DNA of 64,000 bases from Lingula anatina (GCA_051362555.1 CM120646.1:21700001-21764000); one strand, 5' to 3'. Shown: positions 891 through 61,873, numbered from the stretch's first letter. Numbers and translations are program-made. The notes: generated by a model from the letters alone, not told the origin.

Positions 891-1039
891 CTTAGCGCTA
901 TCTTTGGGATCCTCCACCTTTTCCTCCACCACCTGTCCTCCACTCTCCACATTGGCATAGGGGTTCTCCCCAGGGTCGTTCTTGTTCTCCACATTCTGGT
1001 ATGGGTTCTCATCCTCATCATAGGCTGGCTTGGCTTCAG
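891..1039 (-). CDS. Tail exon with YDED, ENPYQNV and ENPYANV
   Basis: ctccAG|CTGAA...; translates SEAKPAYDEDENPYQNVENKNDPGENPYANVESGG...DSAK. Either a GTATAT donor at 889-890 or read-through VYRNN-stop at 873-875. Confidence 0.85.
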
Positions 1040-1046
1040 CTGGAGG

Positions 1047-1102
<56 letters not shown>

Positions 1103-1594
1103 TTGGGTTATTTCTATTGCTGTATCTCTTCTATTTCTTAATCTTCCGAAGTACCTGTTTTCACTTTGTTTTTATTTTATTATTTGGAAAATATAACAGT
1201 AAAAAATGTATACTTCGTATATTGAAAATAAAAAATCATTTTGTAGCCATCTAGTGTAAAAAAAAAATAAGCATGGGCAGCTGGGATTTTATGATTAACC
1301 TGGTTAACCCTTTGCAAAGAATGCTGGCATAACAAAATCTCAACTTCCATGTCATCAATATGAGCATAAACACTGACTTAATCTAAAGACCTTACTTCAC
1401 AACCAATGCACATACTTTCGTCTCAAGTTGATTATAATCCTCCCATCAATTCTCATAATTTCATTTTAAATAATATGTAAAAAATATGAAATCATCATCC
1501 AATTCAAACCTACATTTCTTTTTCTTCTTCTTGCCTTTATCAGGCTGGGCATATAGGGTAGTCAGTTCTTCATCCTTTTCTGAATAACAAAAGG

Positions 1595-1640
<46 letters not shown>

Positions 1641-4600
1641 ATGATTACAAAGGTATGACCAAGCTATATTTTAATTAAAATTTGCAATATGAGCAATAAC
1701 CTATGCTTGCTTACTTACAGTAACATATTTCAAAAATCCATACAAATTAACACATAAAATAAATAAAAATTAAAAAAATGAAAATGAAAAGAAAATGTGT
1801 TCATAAGAAAAAAAAAAATTGATGTTAAGCTATGTTTACCCTTTCCTTTCTTCTTTTTCTTCTTTTCAGGTTTGGCATACAATGCACCAGGGTCTTGTTC
1901 TGCAGAGTAAGAGAAAGGTTTAAGAACTTGGAGCCTTTTTTTTTTTTTTTTTTTTTTTTTGGGGGGGGGGGGGGGGGGGGAGGGAGGGGGAGAGAGAAAC
2001 TTCATCTTTATATATCAGTTATATCAGTAGCGAAGCTGCACATGCGTCCCCACACATAGCATAGTAAAATTACGGCATATGCAAGTAAAAATATATATAT
2101 TATTGTTTATTAAAAATACTTACATAGTGCAAATTATAAGGACTAGCATACAAGTAAGACAATGTACCATGCACTTCCATCTTCAAAGAATAGATATTAA
2201 AGATGTTTTCTGTGTTGTACTTCATCCAGACATACTGCAAATGTTTGTACCAATGACACATTTTTTCTTTCCAATCTTTTTAAAATTAAAAGTTATAAAG
2301 GGCCCCTAAAAACTCTTCTTGTCTGACTAAATTTTTAGTCCCCTTTCTTATTCTAATGCAATCTGCAACACAGATTAAAAAAAAAAAACCTTTTCCCTTA
2401 ATTAGAATAACTAATGAGAATAACAAAGTATGACAATTAAATGCTCTCTAAATTTTTAAGACCCATACCCTTGTTTCCTGCTTCAGGCACATAAGCTGCA
2501 GCCTCAGCCCCTAAGAGGACAAAATGACAGAGTCAGTCACAGCTGAGATGAAAACTTTACTATTCTTCTCATAAATCACTACAGCTATAAACAATGGAAA
2601 GCTAACAAAAGGCAAATACCATGACAACTTCCCTCTTCCATTAAATAATGTCTGCAAGTCTTAAAGAAGCAATTTCAAGTTTATGACTTTGTTTTCAGGT
2701 TGGAAAAAAAGGGTAAAAGGGTATTTTAAATAAATAAATTCAAGAAAAAATAATTAAGATACATTTTTCAATTCATTTTAGAGGTTTATTTCACAGGGAA
2801 GGTGTTTTTTTATTAAAAAAAAAAAATGTGTCACACAGAAATGAGTTATCAAATCACTACAAGGCTGTTTTGTAACCAGAAAGTTAAGTGAAAAGCATGT
2901 TTTAATCACACACATGACTAAGCAGCAGGAATGAAGCAAAGGAACCTTTCAAAAACACATTTATAACCATGCAAACACAAAGCAAGAAAACAGCAGATAA
3001 AAAATAAATTCCCGAAAATCATAAGCATCATGAAAACTCATTATACTCATGTAATATTTGTAGGAAGAGTATTTCCTCCACAAAGCAGGTAACACAATGT
3101 TATATAAATATATTATCATACATAACAAACTGAATCAAAGCACCCAAACTATTTTATAACAAGCTAGTACAAGTCAAAAATACAGTTCCTGTAGCACATC
3201 ATCATTTTGCCAAACACATTATAATTAAAAAATGTAATTTTGCCTTAGAAAATTAAAAAAAAAAAAAATTGCTTGTCACTGCCCAGCTGAAAAATTTTGG
3301 GTAAATTTCCATTTTTTTTTTTTTAGAAATATCGCAAAGGACAATTGTCTTTAAAAAATTGCAAAAAGATGAGCCAATAACACTTCACATAAAGTTGTTT
3401 TTATATTATTGAATTGCTGATGAGTTTTTCAAAGCAACAGGTACAACAACTTTGTTGCTACAGTAAACTAAGAAAGCATCAGATTGGTTGGCTACTATCC
3501 CATATGAAAAATTCCCACAGGAGGTCCTATAGAACTGCAGCATGGGATTCTATAGGAATCCTACAGGACTCTTTGGGACTCTACGACATTTTATCAGATG
3601 TCCCATAGGAAAAGTATGTCATAAAGGACGCTGTAGGATTTCGAGCCATTTTCTTATGGACCCTTTAGGAAATTTCCATAAGGGATATACTGAGAAATTC
3701 TCAGGAAACAAGCAGTGAAATCAACAGCAGTGGATCATCCTAACATTAGGAATTTAGACTGGGTTCCCATACTTAGATCGATCCATCTGGATCGACCTAA
3801 CTCCCTGGGGGTTCATGCTAAATTGCTATCAGCTCAAGAGGCTTAAATGTCTGTCACGCCTACCGAATCAGCTAGAGGTAAAGATAATTACCCCTTAACA
3901 GCTTTACTAGGCATGACAGACGTTTAAGCCAGTTAGTTTGATAGGAATTTAGTGAGTCTCCCCTGGGAGATTGATCGATCTAAATATCTGTGGGAATGGT
4001 CCCTAAAGCAATTAACTATAACAAAGTAGTTTTTTCTTTATTTTACAATTATCTCTACTACTGTCTAGAGAACTTCTCCATGGAAAGTTATCCACAAGTT
4101 GTGGACACTACATGTATATGCTAGTACAGAGCTGTTAGAAGAAACCTTCACCTTCTTTCCCCTCCTCTTTCTTAGATTTATCTGGTCTAGCATACAAAGC
4201 ATCGAGAGGAGGTTCAACTGGCAAGTTAGAGGCTAGAAATGATAGAAATTAGTCCAAGAACAGTACCAAGATTGACATCATAGACAACATTCATGCTAAC
4301 AGTTAGTAAAATCGAAAGCGGTCTTAAATAATAAGAGAAGAAAATAATCAAAATTGAATCTGCCTTTATTTTGAAATGCAAAAATTGATAAAGTTATTTT
4401 CTTATCGTGTACAATAAAAGTAATGAAAGAAAGATGATCTGTAACATATTGGCAATGGCCCGAATATATGACCTGTTCAGTAAGTTTGGTATTTTTTTCA
4501 CCAATTTCACCTAGGGGTATCAGATAATCTTTCTTTCGATATATAAAACATCTGAAAACCTTTCTAATAATTAAATAAGACTTAGACATAAGACTAAAAG

Positions 4601-6786
4601 TAAATATTTTCAATAAATGGTTGGTAGTGAAAAACACAATTTAAGGTTGGCGCTACATGTGAGGGATTGATTTTCATCTTATTAAGTCCCAGACAAAGCA
4701 GATGAGGTCAAAATGAGTGAAACATCCCCAAGTTCAAAAACAAAGTCCTTGTAGAAATGATAACAAATACTACTTTGGATCCCAGTGGTGCTCTTTTTAA
4801 ATATAAACTCTTCAATCAATAAAAAAATTAATAAATGCTGAGTTTACCCAATCTCATCAATTTTTTTTAAAATGGAAAAACACTTTTCATTAATCCTCAG
4901 ACCTCTAAAATCCATATTTCTCAAGTATCCAATCAAACTGTTCTTAGGAGTACTACTAATATACATCTTACGTACCTCTTTTTTCCTGTTTTTTCTTCTT
5001 GTCTGGCTGGGCATACAGCCCTTCCACTCCAGCTGCCCCTAGATATACAATGAGAGACCATGGTTAGTTTTATATTCTAATTATTTCAAGTACTATGTTG
5101 AGATATTATCAAGAGTTTGAAAAAAAAAAAATCAAAACACATCTGTGGTCTTTCATTGAATATTAAATGGCAAAATTTGTCCTCATTACACAACAAAACT
5201 CAAACATTCAAAGTACATAAATTACAAATTTAGCCATATTAACAAAATCAAAGATAACTTTTAAAAGTCTAGTATAAAGCTGTCTGAGTCAATCTCAGTT
5301 ATCACTGATTAAATTGTATAATGCAAGCAACATAAAAAGAAAAACTAAAAGCATGCACCAATAGTGTAAAGAAAAAAATCACATTTAATATCTGAAAAAT
5401 AAAAGGAGCAGAGATTTTTAAAAAATTACATGTATCCAAAACATGCCCCACTGATTCGAGGAAAGGGTGGCAGCTTAAAATGATGCTAGAGTAATACCCT
5501 TCCAGCAGCAAGATTACAAAGTGTGAAGCTTTTGTGTTGATAAATAAACAACTCTCTTTAACACCCCAAAGCATGGACAAAATGCATGCTATAAATTTTA
5601 AATAATTCGTACTTCTGATTTATTTTTTAAAAACCTTTTATAACATATTGCAGATATAATATATCATCCATTCACTTCAATGACTATAGGTTCCAATGAT
5701 AAAAACAAACATTTTTCCTGTATTATCAATAAATGCTTATAATGCAATGCCTGGCAGTGAACTTCCAGCATTAACCCTTTACTGCCCACAGTGAAAATAC
5801 TCTTAGAATAGTTAATGCAGTGAAAAGTAAAAATACAAGTTATTATATTCACTACTGCATACGCAGTGCAGTATATGTACCACACATGTGTTCCACTTTC
5901 AGAGAATGGAAAGAAGTTAACCCTTTGTATCTTATGCAAGCACCTTGAATTAAACCTTTTAGCACACAAAATGGACTGACAAATCAAAATTATAAGAAAT
6001 TTCAGGATTTAACTGCAGCCTTAGATGGGCCAAATAAAAAGCAAAAGGAAGGTATTCCTTTTAAATTCAAACCCTTTCTATGCTAACTAGTATTAATATC
6101 CTTCAAAAGCAAAGTACAACATTTTCAATGCCATTCAAAAGCCACCACTCTTTCACAACCTGTAGCACAATTTCTAAAAACTAAAAGCAAAACTTCCACA
6201 AATATTAGGGCATGCAAAATGAGAACCTATTGATATAATCCATACAGTCAGAGGAAAACAACAAAATTTAACAAACCTCCTCCCTGGTTTTCTGTAGCAC
6301 TGTGTGTAATGGCGTAGGGTGAATCAGATGTCACAATGTCACTCCCGCTGCCGTTGTCATCCACGCGTCGATATTCCCTGGCAACATAACCCAAAATAAG
6401 CATCAACACTAGGCCAAGAAAAAAATTCACTTACCCGCAGTTTTAGCTGGTTTAGCAGCAATAGCTGGCTTAGCAGCTATGAGCGGGCGGCCATTTTCAG
6501 CTGAGGGGTGAGGAGACTCGGCGTAAGGATTAATATCTTCCACTTCCCCGCCCTCTAATGCTGGGTTAGATATACCACCATTTGAGCCCATGTAATCATT
6601 GCCAACAACCAACGAGCTGTAGAAGAGCCAAGTTAATTGGTCTAAGGAACATGCCCTTGTACATTTTTTTTGCTACATTTGCCATAAAAGCAGCAGATGG
6701 CAAGCATTTTCCTTAGTTTTAAGTCAGTGTCGTAGTATAAGGAAATATAATTATGTAACATTTACAGCTATACAACTTATTTCAGG

Positions 6787-6824: not shown

Positions 6825-9434
6825 AAAATGTGCAAGTAACAAAGCAAACAAAATCATTTTAATTTTAAGATGGATGTCAAAATAAAAATCCTCACCTCTG
6901 TCCAGCCATTTCCATGTCAGGACCTAGAAACAAAGTGCAATTTCTCATTCATTTTCATATTTGAGTAAAAACTTTTAAGTTGTTACCTAGTACTTCTAAA
7001 GTCGGACCAGTCATACTTATGCATCATAACTATTTACAAATATATAAACATATTTGTAAGTTTTACCTTTTTTCTTGCTCGTTGTCGTTCTTCTTCTCAA
7101 GAAGAAGAGAACAGCAATGACTGCTGCAATAAGAAGGACAGGTACCACTACTCCTATGATAATAGGCAGAGAGTCTGATGTTGGTAGTGGGGCTGCAAAA
7201 ATAAATAAATTAATTACTAAATAAAATAAGTAAATAAATATTAATAATACAAGGTGCACATAAAATCCAAACATATGACTGGCAGATTGTGCCTATTAGA
7301 ACTTTTACTAACATTTAAAAAAAACTGGAAGAATATGAAAAAAAAAAATAGATAAAGAAATACAAAGATAACACTTACTTCTTCTCTTAACCTGTTTTTT
7401 CACCACCAAAGCATCACCCTGAAATATCTGCAGAGCAAATTCATACTCCCTGTCATCTGGTAATGTTATCTCAGCTGATGTAGCATTAGAAAACGGGATA
7501 TCATGTATGGAACAGTCATTTGTATGCTTCAGGCAATATACAACTTTAAAACTAGTAATGTCATCCTCTCCTGACACTATGCTCCACGTAATAGTAGCTA
7601 TCCCATTAGAAATGGAAACCTGAAGTTGGTCCTCTGACAAAACTGGCAAGGCTGAAATGGACAGTATAAATATATAGTTATTAAAATACCCTATACATAT
7701 ATAGGTTAACAAATTAAGAGATAAAACCATAACGGAATTTATTTTCTTTAATTTGCAATTATTTAGAAATCGATATTCAGGGACATATATATATCATGTC
7801 TAGGATAAATGTTCTCAGCAGTCAGTAACTGAATTTGTATTTCTGCTTTTTATCTTTAAAGTCATATATTATTAACGGACACTGTGCAAATTTCAAACTT
7901 ATACAGAGCAATATTTTAAATATGCAAGATTGTGTACATTGTAGTATGTTTGGTAAGTTATTTATTTCTACAATGTACACAGCTGGAAAACGAAATTGTA
8001 TGCTGGGAATATGCAGCACATTTATTTTAGGAATTAAGAACAATTATATATCTGTGTGTGACTATATTGTGAGCATGACTTGGAGATTATTTATGTGTAC
8101 AAACCTTTTGTCTTGATGTCCAATATATCTGTAAATGCACTGGCATTCCTACTGGTATCATCGATTTCATTCTCAGCTCGTACTCGGACATTGTAAGTGA
8201 TGTCAGCCTTCAATCCAGTAATTTTGTATTGTTTCATTTGCCTAAACCCAGGATCTGGAATGTTCCAAATGCTCAGCCACTGTGCAGAAGTGGCCTCCTT
8301 GTACTGAAGAGTAAACACCTGTCTACGTCCTCCATTATTACCTGCCCTCCATGATACGTTGACAGATATTGCTGATGACGAAATGTTTCGGAAGTCTAAT
8401 GGAGTGTCTGGCTTTCCTTTTAATAAAATTAATGTAAAAAAATCTGTGAATTTCATTTCTCACAGAAACTGGTCAAAATAAATTTGTTATCAACTGAACA
8501 CAACAATTCATTTAATACTAGCTGGCAATATTATAGTGTACTAGTAAGTAAATCATCAGCAAACTTCCATTTAACTTGTATAGCTTGAGTTGTAACTCAT
8601 AATGTGAGAGGCAGATATGATCTACCTCAATTGTTGGACATAACAAACATGATTAAAATTAATAATTTAGTAAATTAAAACAAATGGTTCTGCAGTTTGT
8701 TTAGTTAGGGTGGGTTACAGATGTGATGGACATGGACAGCATGGACAGACATAGTGATCAGAATACACATACAATATGTGACAACAATGACACAGGCTAT
8801 CAGGTCATGCTGATATTCAAAAGAAATTTGACATTTTAACAAAGTCACTCAGTTAAGTCAAAGTAGATAAAATTAAAGCGGTTTAGGAATAACAGAATGG
8901 CCACAATCACTGTGATGACACAGACAGACAGTGATCTGAATATATGCAGACACATCCCGCACGAAAACGAAGTAGATACTCCAGCGCAGTAGACTACTGC
9001 AATCATACTGCAAACATGCTTCAAATCTGCTTCGATGTGGGAGCTAATTAGCATATTTGAAACATGCTTCTATCATGCTGCTAATCTACTGCATTAATGC
9101 TCCTCCTCTGTACAACCCTATGTAATTTTTGAAGTAGAATTGCAGTAGACCATACTGCATTTCTACTGCAAATATGCTCCACACCACTACTGCGTTAATG
9201 CTTCTTTGCTACTTCGATACTACTGCATTTTCTTGCGGGATAGTACAGAAAATTTATATCTCACTTATACATCCTTCTCCTTCTGGGTATTGACATAAAA
9301 TAAGGTTACATTATTTTTCAGTATTCCATGACACAAATACTGTGTTCACAACATTTAAGCTTCTTCACTTGTAAATAAAAATATTTAATTCAAAGGGTCA
9401 TGCAAAATCAACCACATTGGTACAAGAAGTACAT

Positions 9435-9465: not shown

Positions 9466-12400
9466 CTGCAGCTGAAAAATGCACAGACACTGTGAGCGTG
9501 AGATAAAAAGGGACTTGGGTGGTAAGATGTTGAAGCTAAATTTTCCTCTTACCTAAACGTTCCAGTGTAAAATGAACAAGAAGTGGGTCCTTCACCCCAT
9601 TAGTAACTTCACATGTGTAGTTTCCATAGCTACTCTCATCTATCAGTATTGGCAATGAGGATGAGAAATCTTGGTCCTGTGATGTAATGTTGACCAGTTG
9701 TTGTCCTTTCTTCCAAGTGAATGAAGTTGGCTTGGGGTAAGCGATGACATGGACACTTAAGGCCTTTGTTTCCCCAATATCACCACTTACTCTGCGTTGA
9801 GTTCTGTTATTTGGGCCTTCTTTTGGGGAGTCTGGAAAATATATTTTGCTACTTTTTATTTAAATATTTGGAAAAAGAGAGAGAAGACAACAGAAGTGCA
9901 ATATATCTAACCAAAAATATCCTTTTAGGATTCATTTTTGGACAATATGTTTGCACACACAAAAATATCTCATATGAAACAAGTGTCCCATTCTAAAACA
10001 TGCCATCCTTGACCCTGCCATGATCTCCATTATTATGTTTCATTCTATGGTGTTCTATAATCCAGCACATATGCAGATTAAACTTACATCTAACTATTAC
10101 ACTTCTTGAAGCGGCTTTTGTGAACACTCCGTTGGTTGCAGTACACGTGTAAACACCGGCATCTGCGTATTGTATACGAGTTATCACCAATCTGTCGCTG
10201 GTATTGCCACGGTCTGTAACTGAACCTCCTCCTGTTGGCTGAAACATCCACTTCTGATATCGTATGTTGTTTCCACCAGGTTCTCCTTGTGCTGTACACG
10301 TCATAGACAGGCTGTCACCTTCAGTCTGCTCTGGGACAACAGGGAATGTCACTGTGAGATCTACAACAAGGCAATATTGTAATGATAAATCAGTCTATAT
10401 ATTACCAAAAGTGCAAGATTACATTTGTTAGCATTATTTTTCTCCATGTGAAAAAATCATAACTTATAAGTTATTGTGATGTTTGGGCTGCAGAAATCAA
10501 AATCAACACATTATTAAGATGGGTATGTGAAAGGAACTACAGGTATTTTTTATCAAAGATCTATACAAGGCAATTGGAGTGGTAAGCTTGCACATGTTAA
10601 TCTTGTAATATATTTCCATATTGTTTTGCTGCATCTATAAACATGCATTTTCCCCAGAACTGGACTTACATTGTACAGTTAGAGTAACTTCCCTTGTAGA
10701 TATAAGATCCCCATGCCTCGCTGAGTTGGCTGTTACTGTACAGGTATACTGTCCTGTATCATCCTTGGTCAGTTGTTGTATAGTATGGTTGGCTTGTCTT
10801 GTTGTCCAGCTACCTTTCTGCCATCTATAGGAAGTGACAGTTGGGTTGCCGTATGCTGTACATATTAAAGTGACAGACTCGTTGACCTTCCTGGTACTGC
10901 TGGGAGAGACACTGACCTGAACTATAGGGTGGTCTATGGAAATGTAGAATATGAAAACAATTATACAATGCACATTCTTATGCATAAATGAGAAAAAGCT
11001 GAGACTCATAATTTTTGAAGACATTTTAATAAAATACATGAAATACATACATGTACAATTAAATAACAGGAAACCAAAACGAAGTTGGTTAGGAAAGTAG
11101 AAATAACTTACAAATTTAATTTAAATCAAATTAGTTACAATATATTTGCATACACTATACTGTACTTCCCTATGGCAGTTCAGACCCTGATATGGCAACA
11201 AACTCAGGGAAAACTTGACACTGCAAACTTACACTGAACGTCAAGCTGTAGAGCTTCCTGAACAGTAACCCCCTTTGTTGTAGTGTATTCATTTGAAGCC
11301 AGGCACTTGTATTCCACTTGGTTTTCACTGATGTCTACAGACTGGAAAGTGTACGTAGCTGACCCTGGTACAGACACAGAGTTACGTTGCCATGACAACG
11401 TTGGTGTTGGATATCCACCAGTAGCTGAACATGTCAGCTGGGCATTGGTGGTTGGGTTCTGTCCTGTCGCCAACCATGGTAATGGAGGACTTGGTGTGAT
11501 ACTCACATTGCTTGGGGGATCTGGATATGTACAAAGAGAAAGGAAAACAGCTCTAACACACAAAGTGTTGCTTTTTAACATTACTGCTTAGAAGACAATC
11601 AAAAACCTATTTCACAGCAAGCAGAATGTCATTGCTTAAAACATAGCTTGAATATTATAGGGGAAAAAATCCATCACAGGGAAAATTCCTAAAAAAAAAA
11701 TAAAATAAATAAAAAAAAAAAAACAAGGCAGCAAAGCTGTCAAATGTACAGACAAAAAACAGGAAATAACTATGCACAAAATAGGCTACTGTCAATTCTG
11801 ATGCAAAAGTACATTATGTTGAACTGCAAATTCAACATTAAATTTTAATTATGCTCAACAGGTAATACCAATATCTGAACTTTTCATCAGACCATGTGAC
11901 ATCCATAGATGGCTATACTTTGTAATAATATCTTAAGAGATTATAAAAAAAAAAAAACACTTTTTAGAAAGAAAATTAATTATTTGCCAAAAAGAACAGT
12001 CAAGTTGCAAATATTGCACAACAGGTAGTATCAATAAAAGTTAAATGTTACATGTCCTTGGGAGTTTTAAGTCCCACAATGAAAATTCCAGTATGTGAAA
12101 GATAAAATTTCACAAAATGTACAACAGAATAACATGGTCAATAAGATTACAGTTTCAGGACCATATGTGAGAGTTCAAAATTCACATACTGAAAATCCCA
12201 ATATGTGAAAAAAGTGCATAAAATAATATAATTAGACATAAAAACCAACACAACGCCTTATGTGGAAAAACAGAAAATGCACAGTGCTTCTGGTGGATGG
12301 GAGTTGAAAGTGATATCTTGAAGATGCTAGTGTTTGAAAAATAATTAAAAGAAAATGTAAAATAAAACAAAACAAAAAATTCCAATAAAGCTGCTATTCA

Positions 12401-33200: not shown

Positions 33201-36200
33201 AGACTGCTCTTCCAACTCAGGCTGCATTTTAGTCCTGTATTTCTTTTTTGAACATTTGGCAATCATCAGTAACATGGTTTTCCCATAATGGTCATCATGG
33301 CAGCAGCACCCAAAATTGTGTTTTCTTTTATTCTGATGCAATATTACATAATGATTAACAGCATAATGACTGTCAATTTTTAACAATAAAATATACGTAT
33401 CATGGATTTTCAGAAAATGTGACTAGCATGGGTCTTCAAGCCCATGGAACTTCAAAGTCACACCTTGAAAATGCCAACATGTGAAAAATTAAATTTTCAC
33501 AAAAAAAACTGTTTCACTAGCAGAAAGAATTACCAAATAGACTGCATTGCCTACTGAAGCTGTATTTTAGTCCCATGTTTCTTTCCTGTAAGTTTGAGAA
33601 CAGTAAGTGACATGATTTTTCTAAAATGGTCATCATGGGAGCAGCCCAAAATATTTTTTTTCCAAATTTTGATGCAATATTACATAACGTTTAACAGCAT
33701 AATGACCATCAATTTTTAATAATAAAATATTAGTATCATGGATATTCAGAAAATGTGACTAGCAAAGGTCTTCATGCCCATGGAACTTCAAAGTCACAAC
33801 TTGAAAATGCCAAAATAAACAAGACAACACTGTCCTGAAATGTGTTTTTTTCCATTTTTAACAATTTTTTAACATATAACAAAATTAACAATTTACTGCC
33901 ATTTATATATGATCAACTAAGAAAATTGATGAGATGGGAAAATATCAATAGAACAGTGTTTAATGTCCAATTTCCTCCATTCTGAGTTTCTGAACATAGT
34001 GAATGATTGAATCTTACAAACTGCAATGATATGAGTTTATTTCCATTTTTGAAACTTTATTACACAATGCACGATAACAAGTTTACCATCATTTTTACAA
34101 AATCAACTAACAATGTTGTAAAGATGCAGGAAATGTCAAACAAACACTTTTACTTATCTTTTTAATTAAATAATGAAACTGTTAACATGCCTAAAAATTG
34201 AATCTGAGGAAATGTGAAACAAGACAGCGCTTTTCTGAAATGGGTTTATTTCCATTTTTAACACTTTTTTAACATAAAACAAAATTAACAGTTTACTGCC
34301 ATTTTTATATGATCAACTAAGAAAATTGATGAGATGTGAAAAATATCAATAGAACAGTGTCAAATGTCCAATTTCCTCCATTCTTAGTTTCTGAACATAG
34401 TGAATGATTTAATCTTACAAACTGCAATGATATGAGTTTATTTCCATTTTTGACACCTTATTACACAATACACGATTACAAGTTTACCATCATTTTTACG
34501 TAATCAACTAATAATGTTGTAAAGATGCAGGAAATGTCAAACAAACACTTTTACATATCTTATTAATTAAAAATGAGACTGTTAACATGCCTAAGAATTG
34601 AATATGAGGAAATGTGAAAAAACAGCATAACTTATAAAATAATGGTCCGATTATGCTGATTTTCGAACTTGACCTACATTTTAGTGAGATTGATTACTCC
34701 TGTGAGTTTCATGACAACAGGCCTATCAGTTTTCCTTGAAATGTGTTAACAGTGTTGCATATATGCTGAAAAGTGAAAAAACAGCATAAATTCTACAATA
34801 ATGGCCTGATCATGCTGATTTTCGAACTTGACCTGTGTTTTATGAATATTCATCAGCTCTGTAAATATAAAGCCAAAAAGCAAAACTGTCTTCCACTTAT
34901 GGTGTTAACGCTGAAAGTGCACGGCGACATGATCGGCGACGGCGACGACAGACGCAGGTGATGGCAATATGTACAGACACATCTGTGTCTGTACATAAAA
35001 ATATTGCTAACTATTGAATATAACAGCATTTATTTCTACCAGCACAAGATAGAATTTATAAATCAAACTCAATTAAAAAAGATCAAAGACAAATTTAACG
35101 CACGTATAACAAGAAAAGTGACTTGTATCTCCCTAGATGTAGGTGTTCCCTGTGCATGTGTAGCACGACAACCACATGTGGTTTGATGGTGACTGGTTTG
35201 TACTGTAAACTGAAGTCTGATTACTGACGTGTCTGGGGTGGACCGGTCACTCCTTGTACCACTTGGACATCCTGATGTCCAGCTTAAGGACGCTAAGGGA
35301 TTCCCGCCAGGCGCACTACAGGTCAAAGTCACGGATGTCTCCCCAGTAACCAGTTTGTCTACTGCTGAGTTGTAACCTGTCAGTGTGGGTAGGTTCTGCC
35401 AGTTGTCTGGGGCATCTGGAGATAACATAATAACAATAATAATTTGAGCACAAAGAAAAGGTTTACATTTACTGGCTCTCTAACTACTAAACAAGGCAGC
35501 AAAGCTGTCAAATGTACAGACAAAAAGCAGGAAATAACAAAATAGGCTACTGTCAATTCTGATGCAAAAGTACATTATGTTAAACTGCAAATTCAACATC
35601 AAATTTTAATTATGCTCAACAGGTAATACCAATGTAAGTAAAATGTGAAACAAGCATAAGGCTTCAGGCCCATGGGAGTTCAAGTTCACACTTTGAAAAT
35701 GTAAAACTTCCAGAAAAAGAAGTCAATTAGACTGCTTTTCCAACTCAGGCTACATTTTAGTCCTGTATTTCTTTTTTGAAAGTTTTTCAAGGCTACATTT
35801 TAGTCCTGTATTTCTTTTTTGAAAGTTTTTCAATCATAAATAACATGGTTTTCCCATAATGGTCATCATGGCAGCAGCACCTAAAATTGTGTTTTCTTCT
35901 ATTCTGATGCAATATTACATAATGGTTAACAGCATAATGACAATCAATTTTTAATAACAAAATTTATGTATCATGGATTTTCAGAAAATTTGACTAGCCT
36001 GGGTCTTCAAGCCTGTGGAACTTCAAAGTCACACCTTGAAAATGCCAATATGTGAAAAATTAAATTTTCACAAAAAAAACTGTTTAACTGGCAGATTGTA
36101 TTGCCTACTGAAGCTGTATTTTAGTCCCATGTTTCTTTCCTGTAAGTTTGAGAACAGTAAGTGACATGGTTTTTCTTAAATGGTCATCATGGGAGCAGTG

Positions 36201-48202: not shown

Positions 48203-48883
48203 TCTATGTTACTTTACACCTGAATGGGTTTGCTTCAATTGGTTAATTCTTAAGTTAACAACAAAATATAACTTTTGGTAAGCACATTAACTTTTCTTCT
48301 TCCTCCTAGACTACTAATTATTTAGAAATACTCTGCAAATCATCATAACAGTTCACCTTTAGGAGGAATCCATTAATTGACTATATTTTGTTACAGTGCC
48401 ACTTACACAGCACATTAAATGTGAATGTCCCGGACTGTTGCCATGATATGGAGTTGCTAGCATTGCATCTGTATTGCCCTGCTTGGTTTGGTTGTATATT
48501 GCTGATTGTCAACTCCCTGCCAGTCTGCTGTAATGGTGTATTGTTCAGGAGCCATGTATATGTTATGGGTGTCGATCCTGATGTTGTCGTACAACTCAGA
48601 TATGCGGTGTCTCCCTTGGTTACATCATGTCCTGTGGCACGTGAACGGGTCACAGAAACACCCCCAACTGGAACTAAAACAAAGCTGTTGAACTTTAAAT
48701 GGGACTGTGACAAGAATTTATCTGAAGTAGACGAGAAAATAATATTCTGACATTTCTTGTGCCATGTTACTAACATAGTCATATTAAATACTAAGCCTGC
48801 TTATTACAAAATGTTTTTTCAGTCTCAGTCTTAATGGTCTATTTACATGCTGTGCTTACAGGTATCTTGACATATATATATTA

Positions 48884-48915: not shown

Positions 48916-49358
48916 ACAAGAATTTTAAATATTTTACAAGAATCTGCAACATCTACAACTGCCGGATTTACCTGTAATAGAGAGGGTTGTATCTGATGTG
49001 AAATACCGACTGTTAGCTATTGAACATGTTGATGGGTATGTTAATGTTATCTTCACCCCACATGTGTAGGTCCCAGCATCTGCTGTAGTGACACCACTGA
49101 TGACAAGTGAGGCTGGAGGCTGGAATGACAACCTTCCATTCCATGCTGGCTGTAGAACACCATTGGGACGTATTGCAGGTGTACCAGTTAAGTTGCCTAC
49201 AACTAGTTCATACTCCTCTGAATTCCACGACCACTTCACTTGGTACTCCACTGCATAAGGAGTAAATGTACACTGCAGTGTGACGCTGTGTCCAGTGCGT
49301 ACAGAGTAAGACAAGGGTAGAGTAACACTGATGGTGTCATCACAACTTGGCAAGGAAG
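891..49358 (-). CDS. Multi-exon Ig-superfamily type I membrane receptor (V-Ig + 6 Ig + 2 FN3 + TM + Tyr-motif tail); nephrin/CD22/SIRP-like architecture; 5' signal exon and possibly 3' end missing
   Basis: 18-19 exons, each with an AG acceptor and GT donor, joining in one open frame. One Ig/FN3 domain per phase 1-1 exon, as is typical of IgSF genes. Confidence 0.9.
1048..1098. repeat. (AAT)n microsatellite
   Basis: Direct reading; other AAT arrays at ~1595-1639 and ~6789-6823. Confidence 0.95.
1514..1579 (-). CDS. Tail micro-exon 5: EKDEELTTLYAQPDKGKKKKKK
   Basis: attcAG|AAAAG...AAA T|GTAGGT; 66 nt, phase 1-1. Confidence 0.85.
1840..1899 (-). CDS. Tail micro-exon 4: EQDPGALYAKPEKKKKKKGK
   Basis: ctgcAG|AACAA...AAG G|GTAAAC; 60 nt, phase 1-1. 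Confidence 0.85.
1936..1980. repeat. poly-T followed by poly-G homopolymer
   Basis: Direct reading. Confidence 0.95.
2469..2510 (-). CDS. Tail micro-exon 3: GAEAAAYVPEAGNK
   Basis: ctcttAG|GGGCT...AAG G|GTATGG; 42 nt, phase 1-1; GC-rich island in AT intron. Confidence 0.65.
3499..3684. mobile_element. MITE, CCC...GGG termini, 2-bp AT TSD (CMC/EnSpm-like)
   Basis: at|cccatatgaaaaattcc ... ggaaatttccataaggg|at. Confidence 0.65.
3757..4003. mobile_element. ~230-bp MITE family (other copies 24588-24803 inverted and 60936-61162)
   Basis: Shared core gatcgacctaactccctgggggttcatgctaaattgc; imperfect TIRs; all three copies flanked by TA. Confidence 0.8.
4152..4232 (-). CDS. Tail micro-exon 2: ASNLPVEPPLDALYARPDKSKKEEGKE
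   Basis: tttctAG|CCTCT...GAA G|GTGAAG; 81 nt, phase 1-1; second in-frame GT 6 nt further. Confidence 0.8.
4976..5038 (-). CDS. Tail micro-exon 1: GAAGVEGLYAQPDKKKKQEKR
   Basis: tctAG|GGGCA...AGA G|GTACGT; 63 nt, phase 1-1. Confidence 0.85.
6277..6377 (-). CDS. Cytoplasmic exon B (SDSPYAITH), phase 2 to 1; probable alternative to exon A
   Basis: gccAG|GGAAT...GGA G|GTTTGT; 101 nt; open only when entered in phase 2. Confidence 0.65.
6435..6616 (-). CDS. Cytoplasmic exon A (DINPYAESP), phase 2 to 1
   Basis: ctacAG|CTCG...GCG G|GTAAGT; 182 nt. Confidence 0.8.
6896..6923 (-). CDS. 28-nt juxtamembrane micro-exon (GPDMEMAGQ), phase 1 to 2
   Basis: tttctAG|GTCCT...CAGAG|GTGAG; supplies the phase shift needed by both following exons. 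Confidence 0.8.
7067..7192 (-). CDS. Exon: transmembrane helix + basic stop-transfer
   Basis: tgcAG|CCCCA...AAA G|GTAAAA; 126 nt; LPIIIGVVVPVLLIAAVIAVLFFL-RRR. Confidence 0.92.
7379..7651 (-). CDS. Exon: divergent FN3 domain 2
   Basis: ttcAG|CCTTG...AGA A|GTAAGT; 273 nt; ITW...FKVVYC...LPDDREYEFALQ. Confidence 0.85.
8105..8416 (-). CDS. Exon: fibronectin type III domain 1
   Basis: 312 nt phase 1-1; KPDTP...VSWRAGNNGG...QY...ITGLKADITYNVRVRAEN. Confidence 0.92.
8956..9239. mobile_element. MITE, CCC...GGG termini, 2-bp AT TSD (CMC/EnSpm-like)
   Basis: at|cccgcacgaaaacgaagtag ... tactgcattttcttgcggg|at; internal tactgca motif repeats. Confidence 0.7.
9553..9831 (-). CDS. Exon: Ig domain 7 (not in ORF track; lacks B-strand Cys)
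   Basis: ttccAG|ACTCC...TTA G|GTAAGA; 279 nt; hand translation YSPKEGP...LSVHVIAYPKPTSFTWKK...SYGNYTCEVTNG...FTLERL. Confidence 0.88.
10088..10360 (-). CDS. Exon: Ig domain 6
   Basis: gtAG|ATCTC...AGA T|GTAAGT; 273 nt; EGDSLSMTC...W...DAGVYTC. Confidence 0.92.
10670..10933 (-). CDS. Exon: Ig domain 5
   Basis: atAG|ACCAC...CAA T|GTAAGT; 264 nt; SVTLICTAYGNP...YRW...DDTGQYTC. Confidence 0.92.
11233..11520 (-). CDS. Exon: Ig domain 4
   Basis: ccAG|ATCCC...CAG T|GTAAGT; 288 nt; LTCSATGGYPTPTLSW...YKCLASN...LQLDVQ. Confidence 0.92.
11722..20120 (+). mobile_element. Nested/tandem cluster of non-autonomous Helentron (HINE/pearl-like) family A copies
   Basis: Repeated 5' end aacaaggcagcaaagctgtcaaatgtacagaca (~11722, 13945, 14195, 17713), ~160-bp internal repeats, and 3' ends with (GACGGC)n at ~18410-18487 and ~19440-19500. 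Confidence 0.8.
15029..15088. repeat. (TA)n microsatellite (others at ~21218-21256, 37497-37548, 44602-44658, 51747-51804; (TG)n at ~48170-48197)
   Basis: Direct reading. Confidence 0.9.
21259..23150 (+). mobile_element. HINE family B with five ~146-bp central tandem repeats
   Basis: aactagagg start; subterminal IR attgtaccaccag / ctggtggtacaat; 3' hairpin; gtaggtcaaaggtcaa at 21471, 21615, 21769, 21915, 22061; related fragment at ~49724-49880. Confidence 0.8.
25774..26858. mobile_element. Non-autonomous DNA transposon, CAG termini, 6-bp TSD CTGACC (hAT6-like)
   Basis: ctgacc|cagtctg ... cagactg|ctgacc; empty site taacagactgaccacac at 55571; subterminal ctagcccg/gggctag repeats. Confidence 0.85.
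28680..32392. mobile_element. 3.7-kb DNA transposon with ~780-bp TIRs (TAG...CTA termini; Academ-like)
   Basis: 28680-~29460 is the inverted repeat of ~31605-32392; no intact internal ORF; the superfamily is an inference from the termini. Confidence 0.75.
35104..35415 (-). CDS. Exon: Ig domain 3 (C2-type with extra Cys pair)
   Basis: tccAG|ATGCC...ATA C|GTGCGT; 312 nt; VTLTCSAPGGNPLASLSW..GC...TTCGCRATH. Confidence 0.88.
36637..37800. mobile_element. Non-autonomous CMC/EnSpm-like element, 2-bp TG TSD
   Basis: tg|cccagcaggca ... tgcctgctggg|tg; subterminal caacgttg arrays; empty site cacgataacaagtttacc in sister HINE copies. Confidence 0.8.
38683..38820 (-). pseudogene. Decayed, internally deleted duplicate Ig exon
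   Basis: 5' part matches the start of exon 35104-35415 (PTLTGFNS vs PTLTGYNS) with a frameshift and the acceptor AG changed to AA. 3' part encodes LHLDVQ|GTCAGT, like LQLDVQ|GTAAGT of exon 11233-11520. Confidence 0.65.
48407..48673 (-). CDS. Exon: Ig domain 2
   Basis: ttttAG|TTCCAG...CTG T|GTAAGT; 267 nt; GDTAYLSC...YTW...LTISNIQPNQAGQYRC. Confidence 0.92.
48972..49358 (-). CDS. Exon: V-set Ig domain
   Basis: ttccAG|CT...ACA G|GTAAAT; 387 nt; GHSVTLQC...VKW...GRL...ASLVISGVTTADAGTYTC. Confidence 0.9.
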
Positions 49359-52131: not shown

Positions 52132-52204
52132 TTACGCCTGACCTCTCCTGGCTGCTACCAGGGCTCCCAAGCGGCATGACATTTCTTGGGATAGGTTTTT
52201 TAGA
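52132..52204 (-). pseudogene. Tc1/mariner transposase fossil, C-terminus
   Basis: LKNLSQEMSCRLGALVAARRGQA*, resembling the Tc1 C-terminal SMPRRxxAVIxAxGGxT; in frame with 57963-58130 once the LINE and one TSD are removed. Confidence 0.7.
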
Positions 52205-54830
52205 TTATTATTATCTTTTCTTAATAAAAAAGCATTAAATATATAAACAGCTAAACTAGATATTAAATTTGTGTTTTTTGTGTTCATTAATCTTAAAAAA
52301 CTTTCTTTAGTAGGGTTTTTCACTGGCAAATATTTTTCTCTGAATTCTGTATATGCTACACATGTCATTAAAAAATGATATTCGTCTTCAACATCATAAA
52401 TATTATGTTTTTTACAGATTAAACAGAGTCTATTTCATCTTTCTATACCTTTCCATCTACCGCTCTCAATATTTAGTAGGTGATTTGCGCATCTGAATCT
52501 TGCTAGTGAGGTTCTATGTTTTACATTTTTAATGCTTAATAAGTAACACTCCAGTGTTAACGTACTCTTAAATAATGAATAAGTATCCAGTTTGCTGCTC
52601 TTACATATGTTACTGTGCCATATTTGGCCAGCATTATCTACTAATCTTTCTCTGAAAACTTTAATAAATAAAACAGAATTTCCCACACCCTGAGCCTCCC
52701 AGACATATCCAAATCCATATCTATATAACAACATTTTAACATCTGTGGCCCAAGTGTGCCTTCCACTTGAATCTAATTTAAATAGCATATCATATACATG
52801 AGCAGGATAGCGATCTTCATTCATATGTACAAGCTTTAACCAATATTTAATGCTATTTACCATATAGTTGGTATACGTACAATGGATATCTTCCGCATTC
52901 GCCTAGTACAGCTTCCGTCACAGTATTTGAACTAACACCTAGTAAATATCTTCAAAATTTTGCTTGGAAGACTTCAATACTTTCTACTGGTTTATGACCC
53001 CATATCTCAGCACCATAGAAAAGAATGGGTGTTATCATTCTATCAAAAAGAAAGAAAGCTTCCTTAAAGGAAATACATGCTTGTTTTTTCAAATATAACT
53101 TAATAACAAATAATGCTTTATTGGCTTGGTTGATTTGATGTTGGATAGTTTTACCCCAACCAAGGAAAGCACCAAAAAATGTTCCTAAGTATTTATATGC
53201 AGGTACTGCTTCTAATTTTTTGCCCTTGAAAAACCACCTTTCATTTTTCTTTATTTTACCACCTCTCCTAAATACTACTATTTTTGTCTTTTGGACATTT
53301 ACTAGCATACCATACTGGCTGCAATATTTTTCTAATTGATGGATTTGTTTCTGTAACCCCCCAACAGTGTCTGAAATACATATAATGTCATCAGCATAAA
53401 GCAAAGACATGAGATTTGGAAGCACCTCATTTATGTAAATACCCTGACATCCAGCCTTGTTCAAACTATGATAAAATTCATTTATGAAAAATGTAAATAG
53501 AAAAGGACTTAACAGGCATCCTTGTCGAGTGCCCATGTTACATTAAAAATACTCAGTAAGGCCTAAATTTGTTAGAACACATGATTGCAGTTGGGAATAC
53601 ATAGAGCGTAAAACTGTGACGACATGTCCATTTACACGGTTTTTTGCAAGCACATACCATAATAATTTATGTTGAACACTATCAAAAGCGGCTGAGAAAT
53701 CTATAAAAATACAGTAGCATCTGCCTTTTCTTCGACTTAAGTATTTTTGTACGCAACCCTGCAATGTAAAAATGTGATCGACAGTGGAGTAACCAATTTT
53801 ATAGGCAGCCTGAGCTTCGATCGTTGTATTATTTTCCACTGCCCAATTATTAAATCTGTTACTCAAAATTTTCATAAATATTTTTCCCATGACATTCAAA
53901 AGCGCAATTCCTCTATAATTTGTTGCCACATTTACATTTCCTTTTTTGAACAATGGATACAGAATGGCATTGCACCAGCTAGAGGGAAATTTTCCACTTA
54001 TTAATACAGTATTATAAAGATTTAACAACAGTGGTGATAAATGGTTGAAGCCATATTTAAACATTTCAATCACTAATCCATCAGGACCTGGAGATTTTCC
54101 ATTTTTCATGGTGCGTACAACATTTGATAGTTCATCCATAGTGAATGGCTCATTTAGAGTATTGCAACTATTTAAAGGCTGTATGTGCTCAAACCATTCA
54201 GTATACTGTTCGATATATGTTATGAAGCTCTTTTCGATGTCATTTACATTTTCATTTAATAACTTGTAAAAATAATTTTGCCATGCTTGTGGGCTGATAT
54301 TATTCTTTTTAATAGACTGAGCACTTTTCAGAGACTTCATATAATTCCACATTTCCTTTGTGGTTTTTAAAGCGTGCAATTGCTCGACTTCCTTTGCAGT
54401 GTAAGAGTTTTTCTTCATTTCACAAAGTGCCTTAAACTTACTCTTACATTCCTTATATTTTTTAAAATCATTTTGATTATTTGACTTCCTAAAATCATTG
54501 AGGCATTTGAATTTAAGTTGTTTTAATAAATCACATTCTTGATCCCACCACCTAGGTTGATTTCTTTGAACTTTGTTTTCCCTGGCTAAGAAGAGAGTAC
54601 CTGACCGTTGTAGTAGACCTTCTAACATTTGTTCAGCATTGTTCACATCATTCATATGCAATAAGTAATTGAAATGGCCTAAACTAAAAATATTATCATT
54701 TTGTAAATTATCAAGGAGCCTATTTGCTTTTTTGTTGTTCCATTTGTACAGTTTGCGCTTGCATGTGCTTATTGCATTTTCGGGTTCGTTTGAAACATCC
54801 CTGCACTGGACTTGACATGAGATTATCTGT
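52205..54830 (-). mobile_element. 5'-truncated, frameshifted non-LTR retrotransposon ORF2 (RTE-X-like)
   Basis: KSPGPDG, NYRGIALL, FIDFSAAFDSV, GTRQGCLLSP, LLYADD, C-terminal EDEYHF..C; (TAA)n tail; 13-bp TSD taggttttttaga at 52192-52204 and 57963-57975. Confidence 0.9.
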
Positions 54831-54836
54831 AAAAAA

Positions 54837-57800
54837 AACAAGGCAGCAAAGCTGTCAAATGTACAGACAAAAAACAGAAAAAAAAAGATGCAAAATAGGT
54901 CATTATGTCAATTTTGATGCAATAATAAATGCTTATAATAGCACAGTCAGTCAACACTGATTTTTAATCATGCACAACAGGTAACATGGTCAATAACAGG
55001 AGCAGATTCAGAGATATTTTCTGACAGTATTCCAAAGTATCTTTGTTGATCCATCCTCCATTTTGATAGTCTTCCAACAGAAACCCGTTAATATAAACTG
55101 TAAAATCTGACTGTCTTCCAGGAGACCCAGAAGATGGTCTTAATCCACCCTTTCAATAAGATTACAATGTCAGGACCATGAGAGTTAAAATTCACATGAT
55201 GAAAGTCCCTATATATGAAAAATGATGACAGTGCATAAAATAATATTACATCGTGTTTAAAGACATAAATACCAATACAGCTGCTTATGTGGAAATACTG
55301 AAAATGTGCACAGCCTCAGGTGGATGGGAGTTAAAAATCACATCTTAAAAATGCCAGTGTTGGAGAAAAAATTAAATAGAAACAACAAAAATATAATTCT
55401 AATGAAGCTGTTATTCACTGCTTCCTTATTATGGACACTATGTTATCTAGCAGAGAGCTTAACAGGGAAATATCAACAAGTGTGCTTTATGAAATTTCAA
55501 TTAATGGCTACTTAATTAGGTAAATGAGTTTATAGCACTGAAATTAGCCTTGTGAATACCCAAGGGGAATTAACAGACTGACCACACAAATTTGTCTATC
55601 AAAGGTCTTCAGGCCCATAAGTCACACCTTAAGAAAAGCAGAAAACAATAATACACAAAAACAGGAGACTGCCCAATTCTGATGCAATAATACATTATGT
55701 TTAACTGCACAGTCAACATAAAATTTTAATTATGCACAACAGGTAATGCTGATGAAAGTAAAAGCATAAGGCTCCAGGCCCATCAGAGTTCAAGTTTTCA
55801 ATTAGAAAGTGCCAGAATGAGAAAAATGAAAATTTCACAAAAAATGCATAAATTTAATAAAAATGATGACCCAATTGACCTGGCTTTCTAATTTGAACTG
55901 CATGCCAATCCTAAAAATCGTACTTATAAGTTAAATATAATAATAAGTAACACAGTTTTCTTTTCATAATGTTTGCAGTAGCAGTGCAAAAAGATTATTG
56001 TCAATTTTGATGTAACATTACATAATAAATTATAGAATAATTATCACCAATTTTTGATTATTGACTATAAATAGCATGGACATGTAGAAAATTTGATTAC
56101 CATTAGGCTTCATGTCCATGGGAGCTCTGAGTCCCACAATGAATATGCCAAAAAGATAATGAATACTTCATTAAGTGTATAACTTCCAGAAAAAGAAGCC
56201 AATTAGACTGCTTTTCCAACTCGGGCTGCATTTTAGTCCTGTGTTTCCTTTTTTGAAAGTTTGACAGTAATAAGTAACACCGTTTTCCCATAATGGTCAT
56301 CATGGCAGCAGCACCAAATATTGTGTTTTCTTCTATTTTGATGCAACATTACATAATGCTTAACAGCATAATGACCATCAATTTTAAATGATAAAATATA
56401 TGTGTCATGGATTTTCAGAAAATGTGACTAGCAAGGGTCTTCAAGCCCGTGGAGGTTCTAAGTCGCACCTTGAAAATGTCAATAAGTGAAAAATTAAATT
56501 TTCACAAAAAACTGTTAAATTGCCAGGAAAATTTACCAAACAGACTGCATTGCCTACTGAGGCTGTATGTTAGACCCATGTTTCTTTCTTGTAAGTTTGA
56601 GAACAGCAAGTGACATGTTTTCCCTTAAATGGTCATCATAGGAGCAGTGCCCTAAATAGGGGTTTCTTCAAATTTTGATGCAACGTTACATAATGTTTAA
56701 CAGCATAATAACCATCAAATGTTATTAATAAAATATTAGTAACATGGACATTCAGAAAACATGACAAGCAAAGGTCTTCAGGCCCATGGAACTTCAAAGT
56801 CACATCTTGAAAATGCCAAAATGTAAACAAGACAGCACTGTCCTGAAATGGGTTTATTTCCATTTTTAACACTTTTTTAACATAAAACAAAATAAACATT
56901 TTACTGCCATTTTTATATGACCAACTAAGAAAATTGATGAGATGGGAAAAGTATCAATAGAACAGTGTTAAATGTCCAATTTCCTCCATTCTGAGATTCT
57001 GAACATAGTGGATGATTGAATCTGACAAACTGCAATGATATGAGTTTATTTCCATTTTGACACTTTATTACACAATACATGATAACAAGTTTACCATGTT
57101 TTTTACATAATCAACTAACAATGTTGTAAAGATGCAGGAAATATCAAACAAACACTTTTACGCATCTAATTAGTTCAATAATGAGACTGTTAACATGCCT
57201 AATAATTGAATCTGAGGAAATGTGAAAAAACAGTATAACTTCTAAAATAATGGCCTGATTATGCTGATTTTCGAACTCAACCTGCATTTTAGTAAGATTG
57301 ACCACTCCTGTGAATATAATGCCAATTGGCCGATCCGTTTTTCTTATATTGTGTTATCAGTGTTGCATTTATATTGAAAAGTGAAAAAACAGCATAAATT
57401 CCCTAAAAATGGCCCAATCATGCTGATTTTCGAACTTGACCTGCGTATTAAGAATTTTCATCAGTTCTGTAAGTTTCAAGCCAAAAGGTAAAATGGTTTT
57501 CCACTTACTGTGTTATCGGTGCTGCATATATGCTGAAAAAGTGAAAAAACAGCATAAATTCCCTAAAAATGGCCCAATCATGCCGATTTTCGAACTTGAT
57601 CTGCATATTATGAATATTCATCAGTTCTGTAAGTTTCAAGTCAAAAGGTACAATGGTTTTCCACTTATCGTGTTATCGGTGCTGCATATATGTTGAAAAA
57701 AATGAAAAAACAGCATAAATTCCCTAAGAGTGACCCGATCATGCTGATTTTCGAACTTGACCTGCGTATTATGAATATTCATCAGTTCTGCAAGTTTCAA

Positions 57801-57954
57801 ATCAAAAGGCAAAATGGTTTTCCACTTATCGTGTTATCGGTAAAAGTGCACGGCGACGGCGACGGCGACGACGGCGACAGCGACGACGGCGACGGCGACG
57901 ACAGACGCAGATGATGGCTATATGTACAGACACATCTGTGTCTGTACATAAAAA
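54837..57954 (+). mobile_element. Clean full-length HINE family A copy (~3.1 kb)
   Basis: 5' aacaaggcagc with subterminal tgtacagaca; ~160-bp tandem units; (GACGGC)n microsatellite; 3' palindrome; A-rich flanks. Confidence 0.85.
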
Positions 57955-57962
57955 ATTATCTG

Positions 57963-58205
57963 TAGGTTTTTTAGAGTTCAATCTGGAATAACATACCACG
58001 CATCTGTCAAAACTTGTTCAATTTGGTTCAGTTTTGTTGTAGGACATGTAAGCCGTTGATTCGGCAAGTAATGGTATACCCACATATTGTCTATGTGGTT
58101 CAAATATAGCGATTTTGATGACCAAGCAGCTGCTCATTCCCTTGGTTCTGTAAGTTATCTGCTATTAAGTGCTCTGTGCGAACCGGCAATCTCACCATGC
58201 AGCCT
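57963..58205 (-). pseudogene. Tc1/mariner transposase fossil, 5' half (continues at 52132-52204)
   Basis: Hand translation WSSKSLYLNHIDNMW...QIEQVLTDAWYVIPD*TLKNL, resembling the Tc1 WPSxSPDLNPIENxW region. Confidence 0.7.
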
Positions 58206-60165: not shown

Positions 60166-60405
60166 AAGAAGTACAGTGCATGGATATATTCAACAGTGTT
60201 AAATTACAGGAGTGTAATTAAGTGAAGTGTAGTAACAGTACATGTAGGTGGTAGTGTGCTGTAGTGATACAGTGTGGTGACATAGAACTGTAGAGTGCTA
60301 AGTGTACTTAAGTGATTTAGTAAAGCACTGTTGTACATAGAGTAGTGTGCAGCACTCTTTAGTTGAGTAGATATTCATTTTACCTATAGACAGCTAGAAA
60401 ACAGC

Positions 60406-61375
60406 ATGGATACGAGTAAATACATCAGTGATGGTCAAAAGTTAGGGTATGAGGCTGAACAGTTGAGAGAGTATGTAGCTAAATGTGAACAGCAGTACCT
60501 AGAGCGTGATGAGAGAGCACGGGTACATGCAGATGAAAGAAAGAAACAGGAATTGGAAGTGATAAGATTAAACCATGAATTAGAAATGGAAAAGCAAGAA
60601 CTTTACAGAAAGTTTCAGTGAGAAGAACAGCAATGGGCATTAGAGAAGGAGCATATGGAAATAGAAAAGATGAAGCTCCAGGTACAATTGGGCGAACAGA
60701 AGACCAAATTCAGTGCAAGTACCTCAAGCGAAACAAGTGTTAAGGTGCCACGCCCAAAGTTACCTGCATTTGATGAAAATAAAGATGACATGGATGCATT
60801 TTTAGATCGTTTTGAATGCTTTGCTTCTAGTCAGCAGTGGCCAAGAGAGAGTTGGTCAGTGAGTCTAAGCCCATTGTTAACTGGTAAAGGTCTGCAGGCG
60901 TATTCTAGTATGCCGGCCCAGGAAGCCAATAACTATGGGTGCTTTCCTAGAGATTTAGATCGATCTAGAAATTAAAATTTAGATCGACCTAACTCCCTGG
61001 GGGTTCATGCTAAATTGCAGTCAGTCGAGCGGGCACCATAGTTAATTACCCCCTTGCAGCTTTTAGTAGGCGGGACAGACGCTTAAGCCGGCCAAGCTGA
61101 CAGTAATCTAGTGAGACTCCCCGCAGGGATAGATGGATCTAAAAATCTATGGAAATGGGGTGTATGACAACTTGAAAGTAGCCTTGTTGAAGAGATATAT
61201 GCTGACTGAAGAAGGGTTTTGTGTTTAATTCAGAAACTGTAAACCTGACAGTGGGGAAACGGTGTTTCAATTTGTTGCTAGGATGAAGAGTTATTATCAA
61301 AGATGGAAAGAACTCTCAGAAGTTGAAGATACAGTAAAAAGCCTCAATGACCTCATCATACAAGAGCAATTCATA
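60406..61375 (+). pseudogene. gag: Gypsy (Gmr1-like) gag with SCAN-like C-terminus, disrupted
   Basis: PKLPAFDE..DDMDAFLDRFE...W...LLTGKGLQAY...Y|DNLKVALLKRY...ETVFQF...DLIIQEQFI; two in-frame stops and a MITE at 60936-61162. Confidence 0.85.
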
Positions 61376-61614: not shown

Positions 61615-61873
61615 TGTAACTGCAACACGTGGAGCAGTGATTAGTGCGAGTAGTCAGTGAGATGTGTTCATGTCACATGACACTCGGGTATATAGTTTAG
61701 ATCCCGCCCTTACATTTTCAGTTTCAGCAACACGGGTCTCCGGGATCATATAGTTTTATGTTTTCATTAGTTTTCATAAGTTTTCATCAGTTTTCATCAG
61801 TTTATTCAGCGAAATACAATCTATTCAAACCAAGAACGCTTTTTGAGTTTTTAACGGTACGGTCACGGCAACA
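61615..61873 (+). mobile_element. Probable 5' LTR of BEL/Pao element
   Basis: TGT...ACA bounded ~260 bp, directly upstream of the gag-pol ORF; 3' LTR is outside the window. Confidence 0.55.

Follow-up and report, generated by a model that had tools for sequence, protein, structure and literature searches.

The 64-kb window analysed here, the whole stretch of 64,000 nt from Lingula anatina (GCA_051362555.1, CM120646.1:21700001-21764000; positions are counted from its first letter), carries on its minus strand an expressed, single-pass Ig/FN3 receptor gene whose cytoplasmic tail contains five small exons, referred to below as cassettes c1 to c5 (Table 1). Seven Ig exons, one FN3 exon and a second, FN3-like exon, called from Pfam matches, sequence comparison and splice boundaries, are followed by a transmembrane (TM) exon. 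The Pfam matches and the protein comparison support the proposal of an initial annotation, made from the sequence of the window, that the cassettes belong to the tail of an immunoglobulin superfamily (IgSF) receptor.

The five tail exons of that annotation were all recovered at the same positions and with the same translations, bounded by AG and GT, in phase 1-1 and with lengths that are multiples of three. Its claim that each of them carries one LYAxP[DE]K module had to be narrowed to four exons: c3 reads AEAAAYVPEAGNK and has no YxxP. A degenerate LYAxP[DE]K pattern has four matches in the window, all of them in c1, c2, c4 and c5, compared with none in 100 shuffles, and L-Y-A-x-P-[DE]-K is invariant in all four copies. 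The lysine-rich layout ascribed to the modules holds for c1, c4 and c5, which continue into basic runs with a net charge of +3 to +5, and fails for c2, where the lysine run is lost and the net charge at positions +4 to +11 is 0. The label micro-exon is loose as well. Size limits for micro-exons are about 27-30 or 51 nt, by which only c3 (42 nt) could qualify, and the truly tiny exon of this gene is the 28-nt one at 6896-6923.

A scan of positions 1040-6270 returned ten open phase 1-1 candidates, five of which are c1 to c5. The cassettes are set apart from the other five by GC content (0.38-0.57 versus 0.18-0.33) and by purine content; the non-cassette candidates, being AT-rich, pyrimidine-rich and free of the motif, were rejected as further hidden cassettes. 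Separately, a fifth LYAxP match (LYASP) occurs at 2124-2180 on the minus strand, in a 57-nt stretch bounded by AG and GTAAGT between c3 and c4. Read in phase 0 this stretch is open, but in phase 1 it is interrupted by a stop; 0.8 such matches are expected per window. It may represent a copy that has decayed, a poison exon or a chance match.

Table 1 Exons of the Lingula receptor gene in the 64-kb window
Feature	Position	Strand	Description	Evidence
Cassette c1	4976..5038	-	63 nt; LYAQPDK then lysines	AG..GT bounds, phase 1-1
Cassette c2	4152..4232	-	81 nt; LYARPDK, weakly basic	AG..GT bounds, phase 1-1
Cassette c3	2469..2510	-	42 nt; one Tyr, no YxxP, no detectable kinship to the others	AG..GT bounds, phase 1-1
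Cassette c4	1840..1899	-	60 nt; LYAKPEK then lysines	AG..GT bounds, phase 1-1
Cassette c5	1514..1579	-	66 nt; LYAQPDK then lysines; expressed, mostly included	AG..GT bounds, phase 1-1, RNA reads
Exon A	6435..6616	-	Predicted alternative; 182 nt, phase 2 to 1, NPYA motif	
Exon B	6277..6377	-	Predicted alternative; 101 nt, phase 2 to 1, SPYA motif; 57 nt after A	
V-set Ig exon	48972..49358	-	Phase 1-1; most 5' exon detected	Pfam V-set, splice bounds
Ig exon	48407..48667	-	Phase 1-1; acceptor could also be 48673	Pfam, protein comparison, splice bounds
C2-set-like Ig exon	35104..35415	-	Phase 1-1	Pfam, protein comparison, splice bounds
Ig exon	11233..11520	-	Phase 1-1; 92% to P0001	Pfam, protein comparison, splice bounds
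Ig exon	10670..10933	-	Phase 1-1	Pfam, protein comparison, splice bounds
Ig exon	10088..10360	-	Phase 1-1	Pfam, protein comparison, splice bounds
Ig exon	9553..9831	-	Phase 1-1	Pfam, protein comparison, splice bounds
FN3 exon	8105..8416	-	Phase 1-1	Pfam fn3, splice bounds
Second, likely FN3-like exon	7379..7651	-	No Pfam match; common to Lingula paralogues	
TM exon	7067..7192	-	Basic stop-transfer residues, phase 1-1	
Juxtamembrane exon	6896..6923	-	28 nt, phase 1 to 2	
Exon 891-1039	891..1039	-	149 nt, phase 1 to 0; two acidic NPY-x-NV motifs; spliced onward beyond the window	

Origin of the repeated module

Pairwise comparison with codon shuffles suggests a common origin of the four motif-bearing cassettes. 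Five of the six pairs among c1, c2, c4 and c5 are similar at p<=0.004, the exception being c2-c5 (p=0.067), and the four form a 45-nt family that stays in register up to their donor ends. By the same measure none of the four pairs that involve c3 is significant at p<0.05, and c3, which also has no YxxP, was rejected as a member of the module. The introns that flank the cassettes show no similarity, with 0 of 20 comparisons scoring above the best of 100 shuffles, which indicates that the duplication is old and that only its coding part was kept. For c1, c2, c4 and c5, these comparisons bear out the proposal of the initial annotation that an exon with a YxxP module was duplicated in tandem; the four likely arose by old duplication with retention of the coding motif. 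The intron between c2 and c3 also holds a 78-nt inverted repeat (73%) at 3785-3985 that resembles a miniature inverted-repeat transposable element.

Expression and inclusion of c5

RNA reads from four of nine listed runs (X1, X3, X4 and X7) covered positions 1-1700 of the window, that is, c5 and exon 891-1039. Both exons are covered in all four runs, and in X1, X3 and X4 one mate orientation dominates, as fits minus-strand RNA. Read counts at position 1530 in c5 and position 978 in the next exon are 9 and 10 in X1, 8 and 6 in X3, 7 and 8 in X4, and 76 and 81 in X7, giving a pooled depth of 100/105 (ratio 0.95, rough 95% range 0.72-1.25); against position 1023 the pooled depth is 100/103. In six X7 reads, c5 is followed immediately by sequence that matches the beginning of exon 891-1039. 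The initial annotation had proposed checking cassette inclusion by RNA sequencing, and for c5 this check points to an exon that is mostly included: common skipping is not seen at a depth ratio of 100/105 in four runs, with which a minor skipped form is compatible.

Loose read ends at position 891 (4, 5 and 77 reads in three runs) mark a further exon outside the window. Translated by hand from the consensus of these ends, it begins NIGPDGTVYA and so contributes another tyrosine motif.

Variants among the reads are synonymous in 6 of 9 cases in c5, versus about 20% expected (p=0.003), and in 8 of 11 cases in exon 891-1039 (p=0.00015); they may be alleles or come from a close paralogue, and two adjacent c5 changes may be alignment artefacts. 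Two read types are present in X7 across 891-1579, differing at several positions in c5 and downstream (about 26 of 73 reads). Reads of c1 or c4 placed in error were rejected as the source of the second type, as the listed differences do not match those cassettes; it more likely represents either an allele that has diverged or a closely related paralogue in which c5 is likewise joined to the next exon. Outside the cassettes, a tail tyrosine in AKPAY is changed to histidine at position 1022 in four of nine X4 reads, a possible polymorphism. The intron after exon 891-1039 has a depth of about two reads around 500-620 in X1 only, probably from unspliced RNA.

Reading frame and the A/B exon pair

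All 32 inclusion combinations of the cassettes are open to the end of exon 891-1039, in line with the initial annotation, which held that no skipping junction creates a stop. This is true of 32/32 combinations with exon A alone and of 32/32 with exon B alone; none of the 32 is open when both or neither of the two exons is present. Since only one of A and B at a time keeps the frame, mutual exclusion is predicted, and the pair makes a better case for alternative splicing, as far as sequence can make one, than the cassettes do. The cassettes are all in frame because they are phase-symmetric, as is the whole gene (phase 1-1 in 10/10 ectodomain and TM exons), and any in-frame exon duplication needs symmetric phase. 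Phase symmetry was rejected on these grounds as evidence of skipping.

Relatives in Lingula

The closest protein found is the Lingula anatina 'Kit-like' XP_013390179.1 (P0001), which is 74-92% identical over seven shared Ig/FN3 exons. P0001, a database gene model, ends in a kinase domain where the present gene has its tail, and neither the second FN3-like exon nor any tail exon has an equivalent in it, with no significant alignment there apart from the TM segment. The DFG motif of its kinase is replaced by NFG and the glycine loop is altered; by the usual rules for kinases we take the domain to be possibly impaired in catalysis, or else an artefact of the gene model.

The second FN3-like exon, used as a query, gave 19 matches, and three of the six looked up are Lingula proteins, XP_013408315.1 (P0030), XP_013392681.1 (P0033) and XP_013391741.1 (P0041), with an Ig(n)-FN3-FN3-like arrangement and 28-47% identity. 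P0041 is a partial protein. P0030 and P0033, both with a TM segment, have short, kinase-free modelled tails of 57 and 72 amino acids with one YxxP each and no LYAxP repeat. More broadly, a TM segment could be detected in 20 of the 50 proteins compared, and LYAxP was found in none of their tails. The receptor thus most likely belongs, judging from these alignments, to a Lingula family with varied tails, and P0001, which is very similar in its ectodomain but has a kinase tail, hints at paired receptors.

Searches for the product or isoforms of the gene itself were negative, each as weak evidence: an FN3 query found one match (P0001) among 147 candidates, a query with the protein of exon 891-1039 matched 0 of 4 candidates, an Atlas protein search gave no usable match, and 0 of 150 pattern matches in metagenome contigs were confirmed. 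A signal-peptide scan gave no convincing signal-peptide exon. No kinase match lies downstream of the TM exon inside the window, which the transcript itself leaves.

Repeats elsewhere in the window

The 5' part of the gene has very long introns (about 12000-48000 and 55000-58000), packed with one interspersed repeat family recognizable from recurring translations that resemble open reading frames. Judged by eye from translations, broken reverse transcriptase fragments of the long interspersed nuclear element type lie at 52132-54907 on the minus strand, and Gag-like retrotransposon reading frames lie on the plus strand at 60367-60975 and 61847-64000, the second resembling BEL/Pao. A weak tblastn match to P0001 at 63059-63142 is likely due to chance.

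A fixed scaffold or a splicing array

Taken together, we think it somewhat probable that the tail represents one LYAxP[DE]K exon duplicated to four copies, likely mostly spliced in together, so as to give a fixed scaffold with several sites of predicted tyrosine phosphorylation. The confinement of the motif to four cassettes, their mutual similarity, the reads across c5 with their excess of synonymous variants, and the single tail YxxP in each of P0030 and P0033 speak for it. Because c5 is mostly included, such a scaffold is likelier than a mix-and-match array, and the earlier suggestion that splicing sets the number of modules finds no support in the inclusion of c5, the one cassette measured, or in a phase symmetry that is shared gene-wide. 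Occasional skipping of c1 to c4 would be compatible with the fixed scaffold, and alternative splicing is predicted mainly at the A/B pair. Several points nevertheless weigh against this interpretation. Inclusion was measured for c5 alone, within positions 1-1700, and the c5 figure is a depth ratio rather than a junction count, with skipping up to about 28% within its range. The X7 figures are given without four joint rows and four loose-end rows that lie beside repeats, and their removal is what precludes a junction count and leaves room for a minor skipped form; the other three runs carry only 12-15 reads each, and all four were chosen by species label. Furthermore, agreement with U1 extends to 5 of 9 positions for the c2-c4 donors, compared with 6-8 for the other eight exons scored, a weak hint that would suit some skipping.

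The array envisaged by the initial annotation, in which combinatorial skipping of the cassettes would set the number of docking sites per receptor, appears doubtful to us. The open frame of all combinations with A or with B and the slightly weaker c2-c4 donors would accommodate it, and the Penaeus Dscam tail (PMC6851185) and PECAM-1 exon 14 (PMC2132561) provide precedents, but the predominant inclusion of c5 in four of four runs, the gene-wide phase and the absence of any isoform sequence from the protein searches argue the other way. Combinatorial use is accordingly disfavoured for c5 and possible, if unproven, for c1-c4. An extension of this idea, which we consider unlikely, is an Ig receptor with a splicing-set copy-number dial for the avidity of Crk-type adaptors (c1-c4 in or out, plus either A or B), in a brachiopod family that would swap whole tails (kinase, short two-tyrosine and multi-YxxP) behind near-identical ectodomains.

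The gene extends past the start of the window, so a kinase could follow. The gene would then encode a receptor tyrosine kinase with a lengthened juxtamembrane region, supplied by the tail exons, whose tyrosines would be autophosphorylation sites. We regard this as quite unlikely. The kinase domain of P0001, with its high identity over the shared Ig/FN3 exons, and the continuation of the transcript past position 891 favour it; however, P0001 lacks the second FN3-like exon and all tail exons, the TM-bearing paralogues that share the FN3-like exon (P0030 and P0033) have kinase-free tails, and a further tyrosine motif opens the next exon. The repeats might also be something other than Abl/Crk sites, acting mainly as basic elements for membrane binding or trafficking, or binding a different SH2 protein (Csk or SHP2, for example), as a likeness to CagA would suggest. 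The strong basic runs after c1, c4 and c5 fit this view, which is nonetheless very improbable: it is the tyrosine motif that is invariant in the four copies and the lysine run that is lost in c2. Proline at +3 is, in addition, a Crk/Abl feature (PMC6029619; PMC4532999).

Under the preferred reading of a fixed scaffold, clustering of the receptor would allow an Abl- or Src-family cytoplasmic tyrosine kinase to phosphorylate the YxxP tyrosines, to which Crk-type SH2 adaptors would bind multivalently, both steps by analogy with DCBLD1 and DCBLD2. A further possibility is that the runs of lysine tether the tail to the acidic inner leaflet of the membrane. The match of the module to the Abl substrate consensus noted in the initial annotation is sound, with LYAxP fitting I/V/L-Y-x-x-P/F as printed in PMC4532999.

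Comparison with known receptor systems

Neither this gene nor its family was found described in the literature on Lingula and brachiopod Ig receptors or on duplication of tail exons, most subscription papers being outside coverage. As a case of a signalling tail that grew longer through duplication of a single exon with its motif, the locus is a clean one. If skipping of c1-c4 is regulated, the near-equivalence of the modules would also make it a tidy system in which to ask how signal strength depends on the count of identical phosphotyrosine sites.

The Lingula receptor belongs to none of the Dscam, DCBLD, PECAM-1, FcoR or Alr families. In Penaeus monodon Dscam, another IgSF receptor of an invertebrate, the tail likewise has numerous small exons that bear motifs, and some exons form mutually exclusive pairs; the seven skippable tail exons of this receptor yield at least 384 tail isoforms (PMC6851185). 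Diversifying the intracellular part of an Ig receptor is thus an idea already in print for an invertebrate, and the contrast that the initial annotation drew with the extracellular diversification of Dscam is wrong. In Penaeus Dscam, however, skipping is demonstrated for the seven exons, which the available text does not describe as copies of one motif, and the ectodomain differs, with a 9 Ig-4 FN3-Ig-2 FN3 order (PMC6851185) in place of the seven Ig, one FN3 and one FN3-like exons found here.

PECAM-1 (CD31) also has a tyrosine-bearing tail exon in an IgSF receptor, the 19-amino-acid exon 14 with the motif VYSEI/V, whose splicing changes ligand specificity; it differs in being a vertebrate case in which splicing is shown (PMC2132561). 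Botryllus FcoR genes, which exchange tyrosine motifs via splicing (PMC12582321), and Hydractinia Alr genes, with varied and sometimes alternative tails (10.1101/2022.03.04.482883), form Ig receptor families particular to their invertebrate lineages; the tails carry diverse tyrosine motifs, and some tails are alternatively spliced. Unlike the Lingula gene, they use immunoreceptor tyrosine-based inhibitory, activation and hemi-activation motifs (ITIM, ITAM and hemITAM) instead of YxxP, and a role in allorecognition is known or proposed for them.

The best model for how the Lingula tail may work is DCBLD1/DCBLD2, single-pass receptors whose seven to eight tail YxxP motifs serve as Fyn and Abl substrates and as docking sites for the SH2 domain of CRKL (PMC6029619), compared with four LYAxP here. 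Binding is shown for DCBLD1/2 and is predicted from sequence for the Lingula receptor. Their CUB-LCCL-FV/VIII ectodomain has no match in the present gene, in which a Pfam search found only Ig and FN3 families, so the two are not homologous.

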